This document shows, piece by piece, positions 7,152 through 59,897 of a stretch of DNA of 64,000 nt. The position numbers were made by a program, and so were the translations under genes. The stretch covers positions 627 through 64,626 of the forward strand of contig JACRPW010000044.1 of the NCBI GenBank assembly GCA_016223005.1, in the 5' to 3' direction. The DNA is from Deltaproteobacteria bacterium. GTDB taxonomy: Bacteria > Desulfobacterota > GWC2-55-46 > UBA9637 > GWC2-42-11. Within the stretch, counting starts at the first letter, position 1; each line of letters begins with the position of its first letter. The notes under the pieces are model-generated. The model made no database searches. It had not been told where the DNA came from and was given only the letters and a program-made list of their open reading frames with translations.

Positions 7152-7897
7152 GCACGGTATTAACCATAGCAGGTTCTGACCCATCAGGCGGGGCAGGTAT
7201 CCAGAGAGATTTAAGGGTATTCTCGGATTTTAAGTGCAATGGTCTTTCTGCAATAACCGCCCTCACTGCGCAAAATTCAAAAAAGGTAAATGCAGTTTTT
7301 CCTATTCCTGCCCGATTTGTCAAAAGACAGATTGGTGTACTTGTTGAAGAATATAAAATAGACGGCTTGAAGACAGGCATGCTTGCAGCAGAGGGGATAG
7401 TTAAGGTTGTTGTTGGATTTTTAAAAAGAAGGCAGCAGAAAAACATTGTTGTTGACCCTGTATTTGTCTCAACAAGCGGTTATCCGCTCCTTGAAAAAAA
7501 AGGGGTTGCAAGATTGAAAAGCGAACTAATCCCTCTTGCAGACATTGTTACGCCAAATCTCTTTGAGGCGCATATACTTTCTGGGATAAAAATTAATGGC
7601 ATTGATGAAATGCATTCTGCGGCAGAGAGGATTAAAAGACTTGGTTGTAAGGCTGTGCTTGTTAAGGGAGGACACCTCCATAAAATTTCAAATTCCAAAT
7701 CCCAAATTTCAAATGATGTGCTATATGATGGCGAGGAATTTAAATTGTTTAAAACAAGAAGGGTTCAAAAAGACTTGCACGGCACAGGGTGCATTCTGTC
7801 AGCAGGCATTGCAGCAGGGCTTGCAAATGGGCTGGATATGCAGTCTGCGATTAAAAAAGCAAAAAGGCATGTTACAAGGATGCTAATTCAAATATAG
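7148..7897 (+). CDS. thiD: Hydroxymethylpyrimidine/phosphomethylpyrimidine kinase. It contains a translated heptamer-repeat insertion (KISNSKSQISND).
   Basis: LTIAGSDPSGGAGIQRDL... and a C-terminal GTGCxLSAAIAA motif. The repeat ttcaaat/tccaaat/cccaaat/ttcaaat lies at 7687-7714. Confidence 0.9.
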   Translation: MSTVLTIAGSDPSGGAGIQRDLRVFSDFKCNGLSAITALTAQNSKKVNAVFPIPARFVKRQIGVLVEEYKIDGLKTGMLAAEGIVKVVVGFLKRRQQKNIVVDPVFVSTSGYPLLEKKGVARLKSELIPLADIVTPNLFEAHILSGIKINGIDEMHSAAERIKRLGCKAVLVKGGHLHKISNSKSQISNDVLYDGEEFKLFKTRRVQKDLHGTGCILSAGIAAGLANGLDMQSAIKKAKRHVTRMLIQI

Positions 7898-12591: not shown

Positions 12592-12677
12592 CTCCTTTTT
12601 ACTCGCTTTGCGAGAATTGTAAAATGGAAATTGTAAATTTTAAAATTCCCAATCTTCAATTTGCAATTTTCAATTAT

Positions 12678-14760: not shown

Positions 14761-15735
14761 TTAACCTTTATTCCTTACAGCCAAAAGCATCCTCTCAATA
14801 AGTTCTGTAAAATCTATGCCTGCACACCTTGCTGCCTTTGGCAGTAAACTCAGTTCTGTTAGACCAGGGACTGTGTTAAGTTCAAGAACATAGGGGTCAT
14901 TTTTTTTGTCAAGGCATACATCAACCCTTGCTGCGCCGCAGCACCCAAGGGCATTGTATGCATTAATGGCAGCCTCTTTTACCCTGCATTCAACCCCTTT
15001 CTCCAATGGTGCAGGCGCGATGTAATCTGTCATCCCTTTTGTATATTTTGACCTATAGTCATATAAACCTTTTTTGGGTTTTATCTCTACTACAGGCAAA
15101 GGTTCTCCGCTTAATATCCCTACAGTAACCTCCCTGCCCTGAATAAACCTTTCCAGGACAATCTTGTTATCAAACCTGAAGGCTTTTTTAATTGCCTTTT
15201 GCAAATCCTTTTTATCCTTTACAACAGTAAGCCCTATTGTTGAACCCTGCCTTGCAGGTTTTACTACAAGAGGAAATTTGTAATTTGTAGTTCGTAATTC
15301 GTAATTCTTAATTCCTAATTCGTAATTTCTTATAACCTGCCAATCAGGTGTTGGTATACCATGAAACCTAAAAATCTCCTTTGCTGCTGCCTTGTCAAAT
15401 GCCACTCCACTTGCAAGCACACCTGACCCTGTATATGGTATCCCCATTATCTCAAGGAGCCCCTGTATTGTGCCGTCTTCTCCATATTTGCCGTGTAGGG
15501 CGATAAATGCAAGTTTAATCTTCTTTTTCTCAATTACCTTTGCTGTATCCCTGCCTGCATCCACTGCAACCACTTTATAACCTTTACCCTTAAGCGCCTT
15601 ATATACAGCCATGCCTGAGCAGAGGGATACCTCCCTTTCAGATGACATCCCGCCCATCAAAACCCCTATTTTAAGTTTTTTTAAATTAGTAATTCGTAAT
15701 TCGTAATTCGTAATTTTTTTACTCCTCTCCGACAA
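14761..15735 (-). CDS. ddl: D-alanine--D-alanine ligase. It has a TTG start with a GAGGAGG SD. Heptamer-repeat peptides sit at the N-terminus (ITNYELRITN) and internally (NYELGIKNYELRTTNYKF).
   Basis: ATP-grasp Ddl motifs (KIGVLMGGMSSEREVSL, GSGVLASGVAFDK). The aattcgt-type repeats lie at 15684-15718 and 15275-15330. Confidence 0.92.
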   Translation of the reverse strand: MSERSKKITNYELRITNLKKLKIGVLMGGMSSEREVSLCSGMAVYKALKGKGYKVVAVDAGRDTAKVIEKKKIKLAFIALHGKYGEDGTIQGLLEIMGIPYTGSGVLASGVAFDKAAAKEIFRFHGIPTPDWQVIRNYELGIKNYELRTTNYKFPLVVKPARQGSTIGLTVVKDKKDLQKAIKKAFRFDNKIVLERFIQGREVTVGILSGEPLPVVEIKPKKGLYDYRSKYTKGMTDYIAPAPLEKGVECRVKEAAINAYNALGCCGAARVDVCLDKKNDPYVLELNTVPGLTELSLLPKAARCAGIDFTELIERMLLAVRNKG

Positions 15736-16680: not shown

Positions 16681-18069
16681 TTAAACCTTGAAACTTGCAT
16701 CTTGAATCTTCTTTAAAATCTCATCCCCTATCTGCCATATATCACCTGCACCAAATGTAATAATCATATCATCAGACTTAACCATATCTGCCAGATAATT
16801 AGGCACATCCTTTTTATTAGGTATATACACAACATTTTTATGACCATACCCTTTGATTCCTTCAAACAAACCTTTACCTGTTACACCTTCAACCTTGCCC
16901 TCTCCGGCAGGGTATATATCAGTGAGTATGAGGATGTCTGCATCATTAAATGCAGAGAGAAATTCATTAAATAGGTCTTTTGTTCGTGTGTAGCGATGCG
17001 GCTGAAACACAGCGATAACCCGTTTATTCCAGCCGTCCTTTGCTGCCTTAAGGGTCGCCTTAATCTCCTCTGGATGGTGTCCATAATCATCAATAACTAT
17101 AACATCATCCACTGTCCCTCTTATCTGAAACCTCCGTTCAACGCCGCTAAAATCCTTAAGCCCATTTTTAATATCATCAAAATCCAAGCCGAGTTCTATA
17201 GCAACTGCGGCTGCAGCAAGGCAGTTATATACATTGTGGAGTCCAGGGGTATGAGTTAGAACGCAGCCAATTTTATCTGCCCTGTTCCATATTTCAAAGG
17301 ATGTTTCCATCCCATTAAATGAAATCCCTTTCGCATGATAGTCTGCCTGTGCAAAAAGCCCATAAGTTACATGTCTCCTCTCCACCTTTGGAATCAAAGA
17401 CTGCACATTTGGATGGTCAAGACACAAGACACTTAAACCATAAAACGGCACCTTGTTTATAAATGAGAGATAGGCACCTTTGACTTCGTCCATATCTTTA
17501 TAATGGTCCATGTGCTCCCTGTCTATATTTGTTACGACAGCAATTACAGGAGATAGTTTTACAAATGTCCCATCGCTTTCATCAGCCTCTGCAACAAGGA
17601 ACTCCCCGCTTCCAAGTTTTGCATTGGTTGCCATACTATTAAGCCTGCCGCCTATAACAACAGTGGGATCCATGCCAGCGATACTGAGTATCGTTGCAAT
17701 GATTGAGGTGGTCGTTGTCTTCCCATGCGTCCCTGCAACCAAAATCCCGTATTTCATCCGCATTAGTTCTGCAAGCATCTCTGCCCTTGGAATAACAGGC
17801 AAAAGTCTTTCATGGGCATGCCTTATCTCAGGGTTGTCCTCTTTCACTGCTGAGGAATAGACCACAACATCAGCGCCATCTATATTCTCTTTCTTATGGG
17901 ATATATGCACTGCTGCACCAAGAGATGCCAGCCGCTTTGTTATAGAAGATTCTTTCGCATCTGAGCCTGTAATCTTATATCCAAGGTTTAGAAGCACCTC
18001 TGCAATCCCGCTCATGCCTATTCCGCCTATCCCAACAAAATGTATATGTTTAATCCTCCCTTTATACAT
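16681..18069 (-). CDS. murC: UDP-N-acetylmuramate--L-alanine ligase
   Basis: IHFVGIGGIGMSGIAEVL N-terminus and GTHGKTTTTS P-loop. Confidence 0.95.
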   Translation of the reverse strand: MYKGRIKHIHFVGIGGIGMSGIAEVLLNLGYKITGSDAKESSITKRLASLGAAVHISHKKENIDGADVVVYSSAVKEDNPEIRHAHERLLPVIPRAEMLAELMRMKYGILVAGTHGKTTTTSIIATILSIAGMDPTVVIGGRLNSMATNAKLGSGEFLVAEADESDGTFVKLSPVIAVVTNIDREHMDHYKDMDEVKGAYLSFINKVPFYGLSVLCLDHPNVQSLIPKVERRHVTYGLFAQADYHAKGISFNGMETSFEIWNRADKIGCVLTHTPGLHNVYNCLAAAAVAIELGLDFDDIKNGLKDFSGVERRFQIRGTVDDVIVIDDYGHHPEEIKATLKAAKDGWNKRVIAVFQPHRYTRTKDLFNEFLSAFNDADILILTDIYPAGEGKVEGVTGKGLFEGIKGYGHKNVVYIPNKKDVPNYLADMVKSDDMIITFGAGDIWQIGDEILKKIQDASFKV

Positions 18070-19139
18070 GCATCCCTCTATAAATATCTTCTACAATAAT
18101 ACTAGCCGCATCAGGCATTCCCAATTGGTGTGCCCTTTCCTCAATCTCTTTTATCTTTACTAAATTTTCATAAAGTGAAGTCAATGCATGGGCAAGTTTT
18201 GCCCCATCCAGTTCTTCCTGTTTGAACATGACAGCAGCGCCTCTGTCTGCAAGATACCTTGCATTAACCTCCTGATGGTTGTCCGCAGCAAATGGATACG
18301 GGATAAGGATCGATGCCTTGCCAAGCGCCGTAATCTCTGCAATACTTGTTGCACCGCTCCTACAGATAATCAAGTCTGCCATTTTGTATGCATCTGCCAT
18401 ATCGTCAATAAAATTAAACACATTAGTTTTGAGTTTTGAGTTTATTGTATGTTTCTTTCACCCTCTCATAATCCTCTTCACCTGTCTGGTGGATGATATT
18501 TATTGAGCAATGTTTAAGATATTCCAGCGACTCAAGAAATATTGAGTTTATTGCCTTTGCACCTTGACTGCCTCCAAAAACCAGAATGGTGAATCCTTCG
18601 CCTTTCGCCTTTCGCCTTTCGCCTTTCGCCTTTAGTATTTCCTTCCTCACAGGATTTCCTGAAACTACCACCTTGCCCTTTGGAAAATATTTTTTTGCAT
18701 CAGGAAATGCAACAAATACCCTGTCAACAAACCTCCCAAGGTATCTGTTCGTAATGCCCGGCAGGGTATTTTGTTCAAGGATTATTGTCATAACCTTCAT
18801 AATCTTTGCAGCCGCTACAACTGGAAAGGCACTATACCCGCCTGCACCTACTACAAGGTCAGGCATATATCTTCTAATCAACTTTATAGATTTAAAAATC
18901 CCCATAAGTGCCTTTAAAATGGAAATCGCCCTATTTAATAATCCCTTTCCTTTCACACCTCCAACATCTAATGTCTCAAGATGGAAACCATATTTGTAGA
19001 GTATCTTTGCCTCCAGACCCTTCTTGCTCCCTATAAATGTAATCTCATTTCCAGAATCCCTTTCCTTAAAGATTTCTGCCAGTGCAATCGCTGGAAATAA
19101 ATGTCCTCCGGTTCCGCCTCCAGTTAGTATAATTTTCAA
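18062..19139 (-). CDS. murG: MurG glycosyltransferase. It is encoded as two ORFs in different frames (18423..19139 for the N-domain, 18062..18421 for the C-domain), joined at a 3-unit aaactca heptamer tract. Deleting one 7-nt unit restores a single frame.
   Basis: The N-ORF has GGGTGGHLFPAIALA. The C-ORF has FIDDMADAYKMADLIICRSGA, the conserved MurG C-terminal motif. The frames abut at 18424-18444. Confidence 0.85.
18424..18444. repeat. Heptamer tandem repeat (minus-strand aaactca x3) at the murG frame junction
   Basis: The + strand reads tagtttt gagtttt gagttta. Confidence 0.9.
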
Positions 19140-20245: not shown

Positions 20246-21663
20246 AGCGCCTCTACCAATTTTTTAAAGACATCCCCTCTCTCCTCATAACTCTTAAACA
20301 TATCAAAACTTGAACATGCAGGGGAAAGGAGGACTATGTCTCCGCTTTTTGCTGTATTGTGTGCCTTTTTAACAGCATCTTCCATTGACAAGGCGAATAC
20401 AGTCTCTGTGCAGGCACCCAGCGCCTTTTTCATCTTCTGTCTTGCCTCTCCTATAAGTATCAAGAGTTTGACCTTTTCCTTTATCAAATCTTTAAGCACA
20501 CTGTAGTCGCCGCCTTTGTCCTTACCACCTGCTATTAGGACAATTGGCGCATTAAACCCCTCCAGACACTTCTGCAAGGCGCCGATATTTGTGCCTTTTG
20601 AATCATCGTAATAGGAAACACCGTTGATCTCTCTTGCAAACTCTACCCTGTGCGGCAGGGCATCAAAGGCATTTATGATTTTGATTACTTCATCATCCTT
20701 TAAACCGCACATTTTTGCTGCCGCTATTACAGCCATTATGTTTTCTATGTTATGGATACCCTTAAGTTTGAAACCGACAGTTGGATATATTTCTTTTGCG
20801 CCATCAAGAGAATAAACAATCCTGTTATCCTTATAATAAACCCCCTCTTCCAGAACATGGGTGCTGCTGAAAGGGATGATACGGATTTGAGATTTGAGAT
20901 TTGAGATTTGAGATTTTATAACCGGGTCATCTATATTCACAACCGCAATATCCCCTTGCCCCTGATTTTTGAATATATTAAATTTTGCATCCGCATATTC
21001 CTTAAAATTTGCGTATCTGTCCAGATGGTCCTCGGTAATGTTCAGAAGTATAGAAATATACGGCTTAAACCGTCTTATGCCCTCCAGTTGAAAACTGCTT
21101 ACCTCTGCTACCACATAATCAGACCTTTCTTTTCCCATGGCATAGTCAATCAGAGGAGTACCAATATTGCCGCCCACAAAGACATCTCTGCCTGCATCAC
21201 TCAAAACCCTGCCCAGCAGTGCTGTGGTTGTAGTTTTGCCATTTGTTCCTGTAACAGCAATAATAGGGGTGTCTATAAAATTATATGCCAGTTCAATCTC
21301 GCTTATAACCTCAATACCTTTCTTTCTTGCCCCCTGTATAGGTTCTATACTTGACGGCACACCCGGGCTTAAGATTATAAGGTCTGCCTCTGTAAAAATA
21401 TCTGCCGGGTGTTTACCTGCTGCAACCTTTACCCCTTCCATGTCATCTGAATAAGGCAGGTCTTCTATTGGTTTTAAGTCTGTTACAGTAACAACTGCCC
21501 CCTTTTCCTTCAGGAACCTTATGGTAGAAAGTCCTGTAGATGCAAGACCGACAACAAGGACATGCTTGCCTTTCAGGTCAAACTGATTAATGCGAGAAAC
21601 GATGTAACGCGGGAAACGATGTAAGGTTTCCTGCCTTTCCTGCCTTTCCCGCCTTTCTCGCAT
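20242..21663 (-). CDS. murD: UDP-N-acetylmuramoylalanine--D-glutamate ligase. The ATG 21663 start with a GAGGTG SD gives a repeat-encoded N-terminal extension (MRERRERQERQETLHRF). There is an internal KSQISNLKSQI heptamer insertion.
   Basis: Mur ligase blocks (GTNGKTTTTAL). The gatttga x4 repeat lies at 20884-20911. Confidence 0.92.
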   Translation of the reverse strand: MRERRERQERQETLHRFPRYIVSRINQFDLKGKHVLVVGLASTGLSTIRFLKEKGAVVTVTDLKPIEDLPYSDDMEGVKVAAGKHPADIFTEADLIILSPGVPSSIEPIQGARKKGIEVISEIELAYNFIDTPIIAVTGTNGKTTTTALLGRVLSDAGRDVFVGGNIGTPLIDYAMGKERSDYVVAEVSSFQLEGIRRFKPYISILLNITEDHLDRYANFKEYADAKFNIFKNQGQGDIAVVNIDDPVIKSQISNLKSQIRIIPFSSTHVLEEGVYYKDNRIVYSLDGAKEIYPTVGFKLKGIHNIENIMAVIAAAKMCGLKDDEVIKIINAFDALPHRVEFAREINGVSYYDDSKGTNIGALQKCLEGFNAPIVLIAGGKDKGGDYSVLKDLIKEKVKLLILIGEARQKMKKALGACTETVFALSMEDAVKKAHNTAKSGDIVLLSPACSSFDMFKSYEERGDVFKKLVEAL

Positions 21664-29347: not shown

Positions 29348-29554
29348 GGTGGTTACAAGATTTACCTTTCTTGAATTTATTCTACCCCTGTCCCCCACCC
29401 AAATAAAAACTTATCCACTTTATACCACTTTATCCCACTGTGGCTAAACTATATGCCTCTTGGCAATTCTTGTCAAGTAAATTTTTAAGCAAATTTTAAG
29501 AGTTTTTTTATAATATTTTAGGACTTGAATAAATCCTTAAGAGTGCTATTATAA

Positions 29555-30328
29555 ATGGGCAATATGGTTATTGTTATAGACATAGGCAATACAAATATCG
29601 TAATCGGTGTTTATGATAAAGGTGAATTAGTCCATCACTGGCGGATAGGAACAAAAAAGGCACGTACCGCGGATGAATACGGCATTATGATGATGGACCT
29701 GTTAAATTTTGCAAGGATAAAGACTGCGGATATAAAAGGCGCTATAATCTCCTGTGTTGTCCCGCCGCTAACTGATACATTCTCTGATATGTCAGAAAGA
29801 TATTTTGGAATCAAACCCTTGATAGTTGGACCAGGCATAAAAACAGGCATACCGATTTTGACTGATAATCCAAAAGAGGTTGGTGCTGACAGGATTGTAA
29901 ATGCTGTGGCTGCATACGACAAATACCACTCTGCAGTGATTGTTGTTGATTTTGGCACAGCAACCACATTTGACTACATATCGCCAAAGGGTGAATATAT
30001 GGGCGGGGCAATTGCCCCTGGCATAGGCATATCAACTGATGCGCTCTCTCAAAGGGCTTCAAAACTACCAAGGATTGAGATTGCAAAGCCAAAGAGATTG
30101 GTTGGCAAAAATACAATAGACAGTATGCAGGCAGGCATTTTCTATGGTTATGCAGGGCTTGTAGATGGAATTGCAAAAAGGATGTCCGATGAGGTTGGAA
30201 CAAAGCCAATGCTCGTTGCAACAGGGGGCTTTGCAAAACTTATCACCTCTGAAAGTAAAATCATAAGAGATATAGATGAGTTCCTTACATTAAAGGGCTT
30301 ACTCATTATTTATGAAAGGAATTTATAA
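29555..30328 (+). CDS. coaX: Type III pantothenate kinase
   Basis: [15 protein letters not shown]-terminus and ASKHA fold. Confidence 0.9.
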
Positions 30329-35952: not shown

Positions 35953-37257
35953 ATGGAATTGGTTCAGATGATTAAGTCAAAGAGTGCCAGAATTGGCATA
36001 ATTGGTCTTGGGTATGTTGGACTTCCGCTTGTTATTGAATTCTGTAAGGCAGGATTCAAGGTTACAGGCTTTGATGTGGATAATGAAAAGGTAGAACTGT
36101 TAAAACAGGGCAAGAGTTATATAAAACATATTGACTCAAAACTCATAACTCAAAACTCAAAACTCTTCATTCCAACAACCGATTTTAGTCAGTTGTCAAC
36201 TATGGACTGCATCATTATATGCGTTCCCACACCGCTGAATAAATACCGCGAACCTGATATGTCATATGTTTTTAATACAACTAAGACCATTGCGAAGTAT
36301 CTAAAAAGAGGTCAGATTATAATTCTGGAATCAACTACATATCCAGGCACAACAGATGAAGATGTAAAAGAAATACTTGAGGAATCAGGGTTAAAGGCAG
36401 GAGAGGACTTTTATCTTGCATTTTCTCCTGAGAGAGAAGACCCGAACAACAGGGATTTTTCCACAAGCACAATTCCTAAGGTTGTTGGCGGTTTCACCCC
36501 AAAATGTCTTGAGATAGCCCGAACACTTTATGACAATATAGTTGTTAAGACAGTCCCTGTTTCATCTACAAGAACTGCTGAGGCGACTAAACTCCTTGAA
36601 AATATCTATCGCGCAGTAAACATTGCCCTTGTGAATGAACTCAAAATGCTATTTGACAGGATGGGGATTGATGTATGGGAGGTAATAGAGGCATCAAAGA
36701 CAAAGCCTTTTGGCTTTCAGGCATTCTATCCGGGACCAGGACTCGGTGGGCACTGCATTCCGGTTGACCCCTTCTATCTTACATGGAAGGCGCGGGAATA
36801 TGACTTTTCAACAAGGTTTATTGAACTTGCAGGCGAGATAAATACGAATATGCCCTATTATGTTGTTCAAAGGACTATAGAGGCATTGAACGAAAGAGGT
36901 AAGAGTATAAATGGTGCAAAGGTTTTGATATTAGGGCTTGCATATAAAAAAGATGTGGATGACCCAAGAGAATCCCCGTCTTTCAGACTTATAGAGTTGT
37001 TGGAGGGAAAAGGTGCAATTGTTGATTATAATGACCCCTACATACCAAAGGCGCCAAAGATGAGAAGGCATAAGATTAATAAGGAATCTGTCCTATTAAC
37101 AAAGGAAAATCTGGCGGGATATGACTGTATTGTTATAGCGACTGACCATTCAAGTTATGATGCAGAGTTTATAGTGAATAATTCAAATCTTATAATTGAT
37201 ACCAGAAATCTTGTCGGCAAAAAAGGCATAAAGGATAGGAGGGTGGTAAAGGCATGA
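35953..37257 (+). CDS. Nucleotide-sugar dehydrogenase (UDP-glucose / UDP-N-acetylhexosamine 6-dehydrogenase family) with an in-frame ctcaaaa x5 repeat insertion (KLITQNSKLF)
   Basis: IGLGYVGLP NAD-binding motif and catalytic GGHCIPVDP. Confidence 0.85.
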   Translation: MELVQMIKSKSARIGIIGLGYVGLPLVIEFCKAGFKVTGFDVDNEKVELLKQGKSYIKHIDSKLITQNSKLFIPTTDFSQLSTMDCIIICVPTPLNKYREPDMSYVFNTTKTIAKYLKRGQIIILESTTYPGTTDEDVKEILEESGLKAGEDFYLAFSPEREDPNNRDFSTSTIPKVVGGFTPKCLEIARTLYDNIVVKTVPVSSTRTAEATKLLENIYRAVNIALVNELKMLFDRMGIDVWEVIEASKTKPFGFQAFYPGPGLGGHCIPVDPFYLTWKAREYDFSTRFIELAGEINTNMPYYVVQRTIEALNERGKSINGAKVLILGLAYKKDVDDPRESPSFRLIELLEGKGAIVDYNDPYIPKAPKMRRHKINKESVLLTKENLAGYDCIVIATDHSSYDAEFIVNNSNLIIDTRNLVGKKGIKDRRVVKA

Positions 37258-38688: not shown

Positions 38689-40134
38689 ATGAAGGCAATA
38701 ATCCTTGCAGGTGGAAGCGGGACAAGGCTTTGGCCCTTGTCCAGAAGGAACTATCCCAAACAGTTTCTAAAACTAAACGGCGATAAGTCCCTTCTTCAGC
38801 AGACAGTGGAAAGATTGTCAGGTGCAGTTCAACTTGAGGACATTATCGTAATGACGAACAGTAATTATAAATTCCATGTGCTGTCAGACCTTCAGGCTCT
38901 TAACTCTAAACTCTCAACTCTGAACTCTAATATCATCCTTGAACCAGCGGCAAGAAATACTGCGCCTGCTATTGCGCTAGGGGTTAAATATTGTCTTGAA
39001 AGACTCGGCTGTGATTATGATGAAATAATATTCCTGTCGCCTTCAGACCACATCATCAAACCCAATGACAAGTTCACAGAATACCTTGCATCTGCAAAGG
39101 CTATTGCAGAGAAAGGCTATATAGTAACATTTGGGATAAAACCGGATAGACCTGAGACAGGATATGGATATATAAAAGTCAGAAGTCAGGAGCCTGCCCC
39201 CGCAGGCTTCAATCGGGGGTCAGAAGTCAGAAGTCAGGAATTCTTGAGAGTTGAAAGGTTTGTGGAAAAACCAGATGTAGAGACTGCAAGACGTTATTTA
39301 GATGAAGGGAATTACTACTGGAATTCAGGCATGTTTGCATTCAGTATAGGCACAATGATTAAGGAATTTGAAAGACATGCACCGGCAATAAGTAATATGC
39401 TAACTAAAAGTTTTGACGAGATGCTGTCAAACTTTAAGGATATGCCTGATGTATCCATAGACTACGCTGTAGCAGAAAAATCAAAGGATGTTGTAACAGT
39501 CCCCCTTGATTTATACTGGAATGACATTGGCTCATGGGATTCATTGTGTGATGTTATGGATAAGGATGAAGATGGAAATATCAAAAAGGGTGATGTTATT
39601 GCTATAGACACAAAAAATACCCTGATAATAGGAAATAAAAGGCTTATATCAACCATTGGACTTAATGACTGTCTTATAGTTGAAACTGACGATGCTGTGC
39701 TTATAGCAAGAAAAGGAGAGACTCAAAAGGTTAAAGATATAGTTAGAAAGTTAAAGGCAGATGGCAGAAAAGAGGCAGAAGAACATGTTACCACATATAG
39801 GCCATGGGGCAGTTATACAGTGCTTGAAGAGGGGGAGCGGTATAAGATAAAAAGGATTGTTGTTTACCCAAATAAAAAGTTAAGCCTGCAGATGCACCAT
39901 CACAGGAGCGAACACTGGGTTGTTGTGAAAGGAACTGCACGGGTGACAGTTGGCGATATAAAAAGGACTATCCATGAAAACGAATCTGCATATGTCCCTA
40001 AATCAACTGTCCATAGACTTGAAAACCCCGGCAAAGTGCCTCTAGAGATAATAGAGGTTCAAAATGGTGAATATGTTGGAGAAGATGATATTGTGAGGGT
40101 TGATGATGATTATGGGAGACAAAAACTTACTTGA
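38689..40134 (+). CDS. manC: Mannose-1-phosphate guanylyltransferase / mannose-6-phosphate isomerase (ManC type, cupin C-terminus). It carries an in-frame insertion of a heptamer/mini-palindrome element.
   Basis: MKAIILAGGSGTRLWPLSR N-terminus and C-terminal cupin. The ORF listed from 38632 is an upstream extension overlapping the PMM gene. Confidence 0.88.
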   Translation: MKAIILAGGSGTRLWPLSRRNYPKQFLKLNGDKSLLQQTVERLSGAVQLEDIIVMTNSNYKFHVLSDLQALNSKLSTLNSNIILEPAARNTAPAIALGVKYCLERLGCDYDEIIFLSPSDHIIKPNDKFTEYLASAKAIAEKGYIVTFGIKPDRPETGYGYIKVRSQEPAPAGFNRGSEVRSQEFLRVERFVEKPDVETARRYLDEGNYYWNSGMFAFSIGTMIKEFERHAPAISNMLTKSFDEMLSNFKDMPDVSIDYAVAEKSKDVVTVPLDLYWNDIGSWDSLCDVMDKDEDGNIKKGDVIAIDTKNTLIIGNKRLISTIGLNDCLIVETDDAVLIARKGETQKVKDIVRKLKADGRKEAEEHVTTYRPWGSYTVLEEGERYKIKRIVVYPNKKLSLQMHHHRSEHWVVVKGTARVTVGDIKRTIHENESAYVPKSTVHRLENPGKVPLEIIEVQNGEYVGEDDIVRVDDDYGRQKLT

Positions 40135-45051: not shown

Positions 45052-45240
45052 ATGAAGAGGATTTATAGTCTGATTGTTGTATTATTGTTAGTATCTCCTA
45101 TGTTTCTTGCTGCTTCATGCGGTAAGAAGGCAGAGGAAACAAAGCCAGCAGAAACAGCAGCTCCAGCAGCACCTGCAGCACCAGCCCCAGAGGCAGCACC
45201 AGCAGCACCAGCCCCAGAGGCAGCACCAGCAAAGAAGTAA
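45052..45240 (+). CDS. Small Ala/Pro-rich lipoprotein (lipobox LAASC) built from 21-nt tandem repeats
   Basis: Signal peptide plus Cys lipobox. The unit PAAPAPEAA is repeated; the DNA repeats lie at 45175-45232. Confidence 0.6.
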   Translation: MKRIYSLIVVLLLVSPMFLAASCGKKAEETKPAETAAPAAPAAPAPEAAPAAPAPEAAPAKK

Positions 45241-45289
45241 CTTATATGCCGGGTATAAGATAGGGAAGGGAGAGGTAATTATTCATTCA

Positions 45290-46609
45290 TTACTTTTTCT
45301 CTTTCCTATCAATATCTTCCTTTATTACCTTCTCGTATCCTATATCCTTTGGTCTATAATATCTTTTGTCTTTAAGTTTTTCAGGCAGATAATCCTGTTT
45401 GACATCTCTCTTTTCATAATCATGCGGATATTTATACCCCTTTCCATAACCGAGTTCTTTCATAAGTTTTGTCGGTGCATTTCTTATGTGCAGAGGCACA
45501 GGCAAACTGCCCTTTTCCCTTACATCTTCCAAAGCCCCAAGATACGCAGTATAAGAGGCATTGCTCTTTGGCGCTGTTGCAAGATATGCGACACCCTGTG
45601 CAAGCGGTATCCAGCCCTCTGGCATGCCGACAAAATCAAATGCGTCCTTAACTGAAATTGCAACCCTTAAAGCGTTTGGGTCAGCATTACCAATGTCTTC
45701 TGATGCGAATATTACCATCCTTCTTGCAATGAATAAAGGGTCTTCGCCTGCCTCAAGCATTCTTGCAAGATAATATAATGCAGCATCCGGATCGCTTCCG
45801 CGCATAGATTTTATGAATGCCGATATGACATTGTAATGCTCCTCACCGTCCTTATCATACAATAGCGCCTTTTTCTGGATTGCCTCATGGATTATCTCAG
45901 ATGTAATATGTCTTGTGCCGTCTTTATCAGGGGCAGTAGTCATAACCGCTGCCTCAATTGTATTAAGGGCGCTCCTCCCATCTCCATGAGAGTATTCTGC
46001 AATTATATCTATTGCGCCATCTCCAATATTTAACCTGTATTTGCCTAAACCCATTTCCTTATCATCTATTGCCCTCTGGATAATCTTTTTAATATCTTCC
46101 TGCAAAAGTTGTTTTAAAAGCAGAACCTTGCATCTTGAAAGGAGCGGCGCATTCATCTCAAATGACGGGTTTTCTGTAGTAGCGCCGATGAGGGTTATTG
46201 TGCCGTCCTCCACATGATGAAGAAATGCATCCTGCTGGGATTTGTTAAATCTGTGGATTTCATCAACAAAAAGGATTGTCTTTCTCTTATGGTAAACAAA
46301 TTCGTCTTTTGCCTCTTTTATGACCTCTCTTATTTCCTTTACACCTGAAAGGACTGCTGAAAATGATATAAACCTGCTCCCTGTTGACTCTGCAATTATA
46401 TTTGCAATGGTTGTCTTACCTGTACCCGGAGGTCCCCAGAGTATTATTGAAGGGACATCTTTTCTTTCAATCAGATTTCTTAAAAATCTGCCCTTTGCAA
46501 CAAGATGCCCCTGCCCTACAAATTCATCAAGGTTTTTTGGACGCATCCTGTCTGCGAGAGGCGCAGGCGGTCTTGCAGGCTCACTCGGTTTAACATCAAA
46601 TAATTCCAC
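45290..46609 (-). CDS. rarA: Replication-associated recombination protein A (RarA/MgsA, AAA+ ATPase)
   Basis: Walker A GPPGTGKTT, and the RarA C-terminal domains. Confidence 0.93.
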   Translation of the reverse strand: MELFDVKPSEPARPPAPLADRMRPKNLDEFVGQGHLVAKGRFLRNLIERKDVPSIILWGPPGTGKTTIANIIAESTGSRFISFSAVLSGVKEIREVIKEAKDEFVYHKRKTILFVDEIHRFNKSQQDAFLHHVEDGTITLIGATTENPSFEMNAPLLSRCKVLLLKQLLQEDIKKIIQRAIDDKEMGLGKYRLNIGDGAIDIIAEYSHGDGRSALNTIEAAVMTTAPDKDGTRHITSEIIHEAIQKKALLYDKDGEEHYNVISAFIKSMRGSDPDAALYYLARMLEAGEDPLFIARRMVIFASEDIGNADPNALRVAISVKDAFDFVGMPEGWIPLAQGVAYLATAPKSNASYTAYLGALEDVREKGSLPVPLHIRNAPTKLMKELGYGKGYKYPHDYEKRDVKQDYLPEKLKDKRYYRPKDIGYEKVIKEDIDRKEKK

Positions 46610-50356: not shown

Positions 50357-52026
50357 TGTCAAATAAATCAATAATAGCATCTGTTATATCAGGCACTATT
50401 ATGATATTTGCATTCCCGCCTTTTGATATATGGGTTATAGGTTGGTTTGGCATGGCGCCTTTATTCTTTGCCATTTATGATAAAAAGCCGTTGCAGGCAT
50501 TTGCACTGGGCTTTATCTGGGGCATTGTTTTTTTTCTCGGCACTGTTTACTGGGTTGTAAACTCAATGGTAAATTACGGTGGTGTGCCTGTATGGGCAAG
50601 TGTGCTGGCGCTTCTGCTTCTTGTAATTGTCTTAAGCCTTTACCCTGCTGTATTCGCTTATTTTACCTTTAGCCGTGAAAAGCATGCTTTTCACCCTTCA
50701 GCCTTTCGCCTGATTTTTATCCCTTTCCTCTGGGTCAGTCTTGAATTTGTGCGGACATATCTTTTTACAGGCTTTCCTTGGGTCTTACTTGGTTATTCAC
50801 AAACAGCATTCCTCCCAATAATGCAGATTGCTGATATAACAGGTGTCTATGGTGTATCGTTTTTGATAATCATGGTCAATGTTTTTCTATTCAATTGCGG
50901 ACTGCAGATTGCAGATTGCGGATTTAAAATTAAAATTTCTAAAATGGAATGGATTATAGTATTTTCGGTTTTAATCCTTGTCTTTGGTTATGGTCATTTA
51001 AGGATTGGACAGATTGATAATTTAACTAAAAACTGGAGGCAGATTAAGATAGGTATTGCCCAGGGCAATATAGATCAGGCGCAGAAATGGGACCCTGCAC
51101 ATCAGGAAGGAACGATAGATATTTACAGGCAGATTAGTATAGACATTGCACAAAATGAAAAGGACATTGACCTTATTATATGGCCAGAAACAGCCACACC
51201 ATTTTATCTTCAGTCTGATGAAAAATTCGGTCCGCTTATCTTTGATATAGCAAAAACTCTGGCAGTAAACCTTATTACAGGAAGTCCTGCGCATGAGTAT
51301 ACATCTGATGGTAAAACTATAAATTACTATAACAGCGTGTTTCTGATTTCAAAGCAGGGAGGCATTGTCAATAGATACGATAAAGTCCATCTCGTGCCTT
51401 TCGGCGAATATGTCCCTTTTAAAAGATTTCTTCCATTTGAAAAACTTGTTGCAGGTGTCGGGGATTTCAGTTCAGGAAAAAACTTCAAGCCCCTTGCATT
51501 AAATAATGATGATACATTTGGCATCCTCATATGTTTTGAGGCAATATTTCCTGACATAGCAAGGCAGCTTTTGAAAAATGGCGCAGACTTTTTAATCACA
51601 GTAACAAATGATGCATGGTTTGGAAGGTCATCTGCACCATATCAGCACCTATCCCAATCATTAGTGCGGGCTGTTGAAGGCAGGACATTTTTAATCCGCT
51701 CTGCCAATACAGGTATAAGCGCAGTGATTGACCCTGTTGGAAGGATAAAGGTTAAAAGCGGACTGTTTACAAGAGAAGGTTTAGTAGATACAATATCATT
51801 AAAAGAAAGGTCTTTCACAACATTTTATACCCGATATGGCGATGTGTTTGCCATTGGATGCATATTCATCTCAATAGTTATATTTATTACTAATGCAAGA
51901 AAAAGGGGGCAGACTTGCCTATTGACATTTGCCCTCTTTATCTTCTCTATCACCTTTTTTACCTCTGCCGTCCCCTTTTCTTATTTTTCTTATTGGTCCC
52001 CTTTTCTTGTTTTCTTATTATCCTAA
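50356..52026 (+). CDS. lnt: Apolipoprotein N-acyltransferase (CN-hydrolase). It carries an in-frame mini-palindrome insertion (FSREKHAFHPSAFRL) and a heptamer-repeat insertion (GLQIADCGFKIKI).
   Basis: Multi-TM N-terminal domain plus CN-hydrolase with E...K...C (ILICFEAIFPD). The repeats lie at 50666-50710 and 50894-50935. Confidence 0.88.
   Translation: MSNKSIIASVISGTIMIFAFPPFDIWVIGWFGMAPLFFAIYDKKPLQAFALGFIWGIVFFLGTVYWVVNSMVNYGGVPVWASVLALLLLVIVLSLYPAVFAYFTFSREKHAFHPSAFRLIFIPFLWVSLEFVRTYLFTGFPWVLLGYSQTAFLPIMQIADITGVYGVSFLIIMVNVFLFNCGLQIADCGFKIKISKMEWIIVFSVLILVFGYGHLRIGQIDNLTKNWRQIKIGIAQGNIDQAQKWDPAHQEGTIDIYRQISIDIAQNEKDIDLIIWPETATPFYLQSDEKFGPLIFDIAKTLAVNLITGSPAHEYTSDGKTINYYNSVFLISKQGGIVNRYDKVHLVPFGEYVPFKRFLPFEKLVAGVGDFSSGKNFKPLALNNDDTFGILICFEAIFPDIARQLLKNGADFLITVTNDAWFGRSSAPYQHLSQSLVRAVEGRTFLIRSANTGISAVIDPVGRIKVKSGLFTREGLVDTISLKERSFTTFYTRYGDVFAIGCIFISIVIFITNARKRGQTCLLTFALFIFSITFFTSAVPFSYFSYWSPFLVFLLS
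50666..50710. repeat. Second copy of the gtgaaaagcatgcttttcac mini-palindrome element, inside lnt and translated in-frame
   Basis: Same palindrome with cctttagcc / ccttcagcctttcgcc flanks. Confidence 0.9.
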
Positions 52027-59764: not shown

Positions 59765-59897
59765 ACGACATTCTGCGAATGTCGAATTGTAAATTGAAGA
59801 TTGAAAATTGGGAATTTGAAAATGTTTATAAAATTTAAAATCTAATATTTACAATTTTCATTTTACAATTTGAGCGAAGCGAACAAAGGGAGGGCTG

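Follow-up and report, generated by a model that had tools for sequence, protein, structure and literature searches.

We analysed a 64,000-nucleotide (nt) stretch of contig JACRPW010000044.1 from a deltaproteobacterial metagenome-assembled genome (MAG), hereafter the window, in which the cell-wall gene murG is broken into two reading frames at an array of tandem heptanucleotides. The gene is probably intact in the organism, and the 19-nt array in the contig is then a miscount, either an assembly error or a minority slippage allele. We favour this reading because an independently assembled contig of the same strain carries a longer array, the other coding arrays of the window are in frame, relatives are in frame at the same site, and one relative's assembly provides a precedent for such a split. 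A heptanucleotide repeat with a wrong or unstable unit count would shift the murG frame without the split being designed: an assembler or scaffolder may have miscounted the array, or may have picked a minority allele that arose by replication slippage, and either route would give the 19-nt version. Between these routes we would assign roughly two parts to local assembly or scaffolding error and one part to a real minority slippage allele chosen by the assembler. Metagenome scaffolds are described as commonly containing local errors of this sort, both miscounted repeats and spurious Ns (PMC7111523).

Reading frames and domains at the murG junction

The murG locus occupies positions 18062-19139 on the minus strand and, as the earlier note had reported, is read in two frames that meet at the heptamer array (18443-18425; Table 1). 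The three-unit repeat described in that note stands as a perfect period-7 run but not as three units, as it comprises 2.7 of them and the supposed third unit (aaacta) consists of five repeat bases and one flanking base. The 5′ open reading frame (ORF) is identical to NCBI protein MBI5682550.1 and the 3′ ORF, whose stop overlaps the start of murC, to the NCBI 'hypothetical protein HZC45_05215', and the two parts of murG are thus annotated as separate proteins on a 65,087-nt MAG contig labelled 'Deltaproteobacteria bacterium'. All three frames are open across the junction array. Neither half contains a further stop and both keep the residues conserved in the family, no second murG copy was found in the 64-kb window, and a search of murG for an internal promoter or terminator gave nothing above shuffled background.

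The break lies inside the C-terminal Rossmann fold and not at a domain boundary. The 5′ ORF encodes the complete N domain with its GGTGGH loop (Glyco_transf_28, PF03033, E = 9.8e-35, residues 3-142), the inter-domain linker and the first third of the C domain (Glyco_tran_28_C, PF04101, profile positions 1-53), while the 3′ ORF encodes the remaining two thirds (profile positions 59-163) in the +1 frame, so that the earlier picture of N and C domains lying in different frames needs correction. The C domain with its GGSQG loop is not encoded as one chain with the N domain, and becomes continuous with it only after the loss of 7 nt or the gain of 14 nt. In an alignment of 44 MurG sequences the junction site is a length-variable loop, and in a structure model of the intact relative P0003 (mean predicted local distance difference test score 88.9) it is placed between helix 224-233 and strand 239-244.

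An array inside a gene stays in frame only if its unit number changes in threes, because 7 and 3 share no factor. At the murG junction the in-frame lengths are 12 or 33 nt, and the 19 nt of the window is therefore one unit too many or two too few. Removal of one unit (7 nt) does yield the continuous MurG that had been proposed, as a 356-amino-acid (aa) ORF with the predicted peptide ...ETYNKLKTNVFNFIDDMADAY. Addition of two units (14 nt) yields a 363-aa ORF with ...ETYNKLKTQNSKLKTNVFNF (...YNKLKTQNSKLKTNVFNF...) and an extra KLKTQNS heptad; addition of 7 nt leaves the frame broken. The repaired 363-aa MurG matches the structures 7d1i, 3s2u and 1f0k (E = 4e-61 to 5e-52) over residues 3-357.

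The locus sits between ftsW and murC in a complete dcw cluster, which extends over 11.4-29.4 kb of the window according to ORF calls and translations, with all genes on the minus strand in the order mraZ-like, rsmH-like, ftsL, ftsI, murE, murF, mraY, murD, ftsW, murG, murC, murB, ddl, ftsQ, ftsA, ftsZ. These names were given mostly by ORF order and by reading of the translations; the minus-strand order murD-ftsW-murG-murC-murB-ddl is the same in Pfam-labelled relatives, whose labels on matching genes cover murD to ddl only.

Unit counts in independent assemblies and in relatives

For the same strain we compared the window with assembled sequence, namely Logan contigs of the runs SRR12113407 and SRR12113395 (Table 1). 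One of these, L001, starts inside the junction array, reading ACTCAAAACTCAAAACTCAAAACT followed by AATGTG, and so has a perfect repeat of at least 24 nt beside the 3′ part of murG as against 19 nt in the window; its first 5 nt (ACTCA) extend the repeat at the place where the window has the left flank ACAAT. Besides one mismatch in L018, this is the sole disagreement between contigs and window over 12.5 kb. Contigs L002, L003 and L018 agree with the window over 9.7 kb save for that mismatch, array stretches included: the linker array of murG has the same count in L003, a contig from SRR12113395 that crosses its 37 nt unbroken, L002 ends inside this array and has its other end inside the murD array, and at the three array-bound ends other than the start of L001 the contigs agree with the window as far as they reach. 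The number of units in the MAG is therefore not reproducible. The prevailing allele in SRR12113407 has at least 3.4 units, and the smallest in-frame allele that fits L001 has 4.7; a true count of 4.7 units (33 nt), encoding a MurG of 363 aa, is the probable one on these sequence comparisons.

A direct precedent for a murG split made by assembly at a heptamer array comes from a relative. Two assemblies of this related species, represented by the contigs L004 (GCA_003532155.1, DOFD01000039.1) and L006 (MGPS01000006.1, GWC2_42_11), differ over 291 aligned nt solely by an 'NN' in the linker array of L004 (2458-2500, versus 3509-3549 in L006), which splits the murG call into 196 and 177 aa where the L006 protein is intact at 360 aa. 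Both cases resemble known scaffold errors (PMC7111523), the window in that its repeat number is unsupported by a second assembly and L004 as the form with Ns inside the repeat, with the difference that, for the window, the error is deduced from the end of a contig within the repeat and not from read mapping. Of the causes that the earlier note had offered, assembly or collapse error and population heterogeneity both gain support from the repeat length in L001 and from the split in L004, while its headline of a truly split essential gene is not supported.

The relatives, moreover, are in frame at the junction. The nearest intact MurGs (57-65% identical) all have an in-frame heptamer-derived segment at the junction loop, which is KFQISNFKFQI in P0003 (from a perfect AAATTTC x4.9 array in L006 and L004), RLRITNYKLQIT in P0004 and RFHIPNFKFQV in P0002 (from a degenerate array in L005). 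P0002, P0003 as encoded in L006, and P0004 are single ORFs through this loop, and the two-frame arrangement is not conserved.

Searches in wider collections bear on the same question. The exact 238-aa and 119-aa products have no record in public assemblies, and hence no independent contig with the murG frameshift is seen there; these exact-product look-ups also returned no independent contig that spans the junction. Contigs of Joint Genome Institute (JGI) metagenomes gave no match to the two flanks with a variable gap or to the right flank alone, and Logan look-ups with MraY, FtsA and MurE gave no matches.

Several observations weigh against a miscount. L001 stops 24 nt into the array without spanning it, and an out-of-frame allele of 26 nt would fit it too. 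The Logan contigs end 24, 24, 27 and 30 nt into arrays, which does not suit simple copy-number bubbles at k=31; in a k=31 de Bruijn simulation with mixtures of 12-54-nt alleles the predicted start of L001 was 12, 19, 26 or 30 nt into the array and never 24. Neither the protein collection nor the JGI metagenomes yielded a full-length MurG of this species in one frame, the closest intact MurG protein being 65% identical to that of the window. Finally, perfect arrays of 33 and 37 nt were assembled in frame on the murG contig itself, so that the assembler shows no systematic collapse of arrays, and a de Bruijn assembler with k of at least 21 would yield a 19-nt array only if reads carried it, which would favour a real allele over a pure artefact. 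Collapse in a k=20 graph (19 being k-1, by the shortest path) was considered and rejected as evidence, the assembler not being known and the other arrays being uncollapsed. The groundwater study PMC7906910, which combined MEGAHIT with IDBA-UD scaffolding, is a suspected source of the data, but neither the run numbers nor the locus tag turned up in its supplement text.

The correct assembly of the other perfect arrays and the need for reads that carry a 19-nt array would also suit the main rival, a real and abundant out-of-frame allele. The array would then be hypermutable, and 2.7 units would truly be present in a substantial share of the cells or in the genotype that dominates the MAG sample; slippage would incidentally turn murG on and off, and cells with the broken gene would die, grow slowly or survive through low-level rescue. 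The copy number does differ between the MAG and L001 despite flanks that are 100% identical, and five of the six contig ends of SRR12113407 lie in or beside arrays (window positions 15692, 18448, 18604, 20910 and 36124), which suggests array-length heterogeneity within one sample. MurG, however, is an essential, single-copy core cell-wall enzyme in the bacteria that have been studied, and a lethal allele should remain near the mutation rate and not reach consensus level; an array of 2.7 units is short for high slippage rates, and all the other coding arrays of the window keep the frame. We consider an abundant allele unlikely. If real and common, it would be a rare instance of repeat-driven switching of an essential cell-wall gene, and one would have to ask how arrays can lengthen within essential genes while avoiding lethal frames on the way.

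The closest known parallel is neuO of the Escherichia coli K1 prophage CUS-3, which has a heptanucleotide variable-number tandem repeat (poly-psi) where gain or loss of a single unit, by slipped-strand mispairing, is the commonest change and where the gene is expressed only at multiples of three units (PMC3046976). That single-unit changes are commonest there would also suit an abundant murG allele. As in neuO, the murG array is a tandem repeat within a coding region, here a perfect one, whose 7-nt unit is not a multiple of three in length, three units encode one heptad, and the full-length protein is made only at a frame-keeping count; the units themselves are one base apart (AAGACTC, encoding RLKTQDS, in neuO and AAAACTC, encoding KLKTQNS, in murG). 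The two differ in that neuO, an accessory gene for surface modification, carries 2-93 units at its 5′ end and switches in a manner demonstrated to be adaptive (PMC3046976), whereas murG is a housekeeping cell-wall gene with 2.7 units in an internal loop, and its difference in count may be an assembly error. The unit number does differ between identical flanks (19 nt in the window, at least 24 nt in L001), a difference in which biological variation and assembly error look alike in contigs. It is unlikely that murG is a contingency gene, and adaptive switching is not indicated.

A miscounted array of this kind carries a caution: in heptamer-rich genomes a wrong repeat count can split gene calls in MAGs, and completeness estimates, pseudogene counts and inferences of essential-gene loss for such lineages would be biased.

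Less likely readings: a split, recoded or inactive murG

Three further explanations take the 19-nt array at face value. In the first, MurG is functional as two polypeptides that associate, with the second made by termination and reinitiation at the overlapping TAAtGTG. The GTG of the 3′ ORF does lie 2 nt after the TAA of the 5′ ORF, and conserved MurG residues are present in both parts. The two polypeptides would, however, have to meet inside the Rossmann fold of the C domain, where a helix gives way to the following strand; no Shine-Dalgarno sequence precedes the GTG at 18421, which is itself overlapped by an out-of-frame ATG. None of the relatives examined is split at the junction loop, those read at the DNA or protein level being in frame, the only other split that was checked at the DNA level is the 'NN' artefact described above, and L001 contradicts the unit count from which the split arises. 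We regard a functional split as highly improbable.

The earlier note had also allowed for a recoding mechanism, and a +1 ribosomal frameshift within the array, programmed or tolerated, could for instance involve a slip of tRNA-Lys on CTC-AAA-A to give ...NKLKLKTNVFNF... The run of four A residues, which is the sole site for re-pairing, would let tRNA-Lys pair perfectly again after a +1 shift, and no frame is closed across the array; the product would have a loop of 11 residues, which is the canonical length, a curiosity and not evidence. Against such a shift, no slow codon or stop codon occupies the A site at CTC-AAA-A, the AAC that precedes the stop (AAC-TAA) is unable to re-pair in the +1 frame, no Shine-Dalgarno-like stimulator is found at the correct spacing, the downstream 96 nt fold no better than shuffled sequences (z = -0.11), and the site is not conserved, as the relatives are in frame. 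The likeness to prfB (RF2) is that a +1 shift is needed and that a stop closes the 0 frame; unlike prfB, the murG site has no slippery codon at the stop, no upstream Shine-Dalgarno stimulator and no conservation among relatives. Recoding is accordingly extremely unlikely here.

Lastly, murG at this locus may be a true pseudogene, with a second, functional copy elsewhere in the genome. This has hardly any probability in our estimation: the two halves have no further stops and keep residues conserved in the family, the gene stands at its normal place in the dcw cluster, where relatives have one intact copy, and the 64 kb of the window hold no second one.

Heptamer arrays across the window

Arrays of heptamers are found throughout the window, with Tandem Repeats Finder reporting 29 rows of period 7 in the 64 kb. 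There are 12 perfect runs of period 7 that reach 17 nt or more, as against 0.07 expected from first-order Markov simulations and 0-4 runs for other periods. The arrays occur within and between genes at about one per 2 kb and are mostly 30-37 nt long. Their units are diverse (AAACTCA, AAATCTC, AATTACG, AAAGGCG, AACTCTA, ATTGCAG and others), with no consensus unit common to the loci.

About seventeen arrays are wholly within genes, and the murG junction array alone is out of frame. They lie in a thiD-like gene, ddl (two), murB (two), murC, murE (three), murG (two, the junction array included), murD, a UDP-glucose dehydrogenase family gene, a manC-like gene (two) and lnt, and the heptads that they encode include KSQISNL, NYELRIT and KGERRKA. 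The longer coding arrays cluster at 31-37 nt (4.4-5.3 units), apart from one ddl array of 7.6 units; an murG array of 33 nt (4.7 units) would be typical, and 2.7 units is the odd one out. Since arrays of about 30-37 nt occur between genes as well, the preferred length is not solely an effect of the reading frame. The recurrence of the heptamer in the dehydrogenase gene, in frame, which the earlier note had pointed out, is confirmed (with one mismatch to a perfect array), and contig L018 holds this array unchanged.

Table 1. Coordinates of the murG features, heptamer arrays, same-strain contigs and arrays in relatives (window positions unless a contig is named).
Feature	Position	Strand	Details
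murG 5′ ORF	18423-19139	-	238 aa; TTG start, TAA stop 18425-18423; starts MKIILTGGGTGGH, C-terminal end ...ETYNKLKTQN*
murG 3′ ORF	18062-18421	-, +1 frame	119 aa from GTG 18421; start (GTG)FNFIDDMADAY
Overlap with 0 and +1 frames both open	18426-18457	-	+1 frame TGA 18460-18458; 0 frame stop 18425-18423
murG junction array, AAACTCA x2.7	18425-18443	-	perfect, 19 nt: AAACTCA AAACTCA AAACT
Flanks of the junction array			GAAACATACAAT and AATGTGTTTAATTT
Predicted murG junction peptides			ETYNKLKTQNSKLKTNVFNFIDDMADAYK; ...KLKTNVF... (12-nt allele); ...KLKLKTNVF... (+1 slip)
Second murG array, AAAGGCG x5.3	18597-18633	-	37 nt, perfect, in frame; KAKGERRKAKGEG; inter-domain linker
murD array, AAATCTC x4.7	20884-20916	-	33 nt, in frame; KSQISNLKSQI; typical coding array
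ddl array, AATTACG x4.6	15684-15715	-	in frame; 5′ end of ddl; far end of L001 stops here
Dehydrogenase array, ACTCAAA x4.6	36134-36165	+	one mismatch, in frame; DSKLITQNSKLF; UDP-glucose/GDP-mannose dehydrogenase family gene
Other example array	7683-7714		
Other example array	15275-15327		
Other example array	38897-38930		
Other example array	50894-50924		
Contig L001	18443-15692		SRR12113407; 100% over 2,752 nt
Contig L002	20910-18604		SRR12113407; 100%
Contig L003	20569-18544		SRR12113395; 100%
Contig L018	36124-41505		SRR12113407; one mismatch
Junction array of relative	L006 3697-3730		orthologous to window 18425-18443
Linker array of relative	L006 3509-3549		orthologous to window 18597-18633
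Junction array of relative	L005 3281-3325		orthologous to window 18425-18443
Linker array of relative	L005 3007-3032		orthologous to window 18597-18633

From species to species the repeat unit at orthologous MurG loops changes, with AAACTCA, AAATTTC and degenerate AAATTYC at the junction and AAAGGCG, AAAACTC and AGGGTCA at the linker, where the relatives have AAAACTC x5.9 (L006) and AGGGTCA x3.7 (L005). The array of P0003, part of which codes for a beta-strand, leaves its MurG only 3 residues longer than MurG without an array; the arrays have therefore replaced ancestral codons and were not simply inserted between them. We find these heptamer arrays at orthologous loops of essential genes more interesting than the murG split.

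Such arrays could be read as a genome-wide system in active turnover in this lineage, of which the 2.7-unit murG allele would be a real intermediate. On this reading the arrays use the same essential-gene loops with different units per species, overwrite loop and strand codons and vary in unit number within a population, and the allele would be tolerated by virtue of three open frames together with enough MurG from weak +1 slippage on the A-run or from reinitiation at TAAtGTG. We think this reading decidedly unlikely, and retain the miscount of an intact gene.

Heptamer repeats are over-represented in bacteria, with cases known from cyanobacteria and Xanthomonas (PMC4692102), and in Geobacter metallireducens 49 + 15 sites, genic and intergenic, hold four to five heptamers in tandem (PMC2700814). 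The arrays of the window resemble these Geobacter and cyanobacterial elements in their period of 7, in having about 4-5 units, in their many loci within and between genes and in an abundance far above chance. They differ from the Geobacter type in that their units are A/T-rich and diverse and do not follow one GC-rich consensus, in their far higher density (about 1 per 2 kb), and in occupying orthologous loops of essential genes, where the unit changes with the species.

Some arrays between genes form adjacent inverted pairs, at 12612-12671 (arms of 30 nt, 0 nt apart, with 77% complementarity) and at 59782-59873 (arms of 40 nt, 12 nt apart, with 75%), and could form long imperfect hairpins; one of the pairs lies in the ftsA-ftsZ spacer. 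Tandem repeats of other periods are also present. A 9-nt repeat (x3.4, in frame, 21627-21657) at the 5′ end of the murD ORF encodes MRERRERQERQE, an N-terminal extension that is absent from the relatives in the alignment, and the true start of murD may be downstream. A degenerate 9-nt/27-nt repeat at 45145-45231 (CCAGCAGCA) is a low-complexity coding repeat of the Pro/Ala type, located in a region where long ORFs overlap on opposite strands (45107-45655 on the plus strand and 45290-46609 on the minus strand). Finally, gene orientation switches at about 29400-29555, with minus-strand genes to the left and plus-strand genes to the right, and the GC skew changes sign at about 28-32 kb; the switch could mark a replication origin or the boundary of divergent operons.

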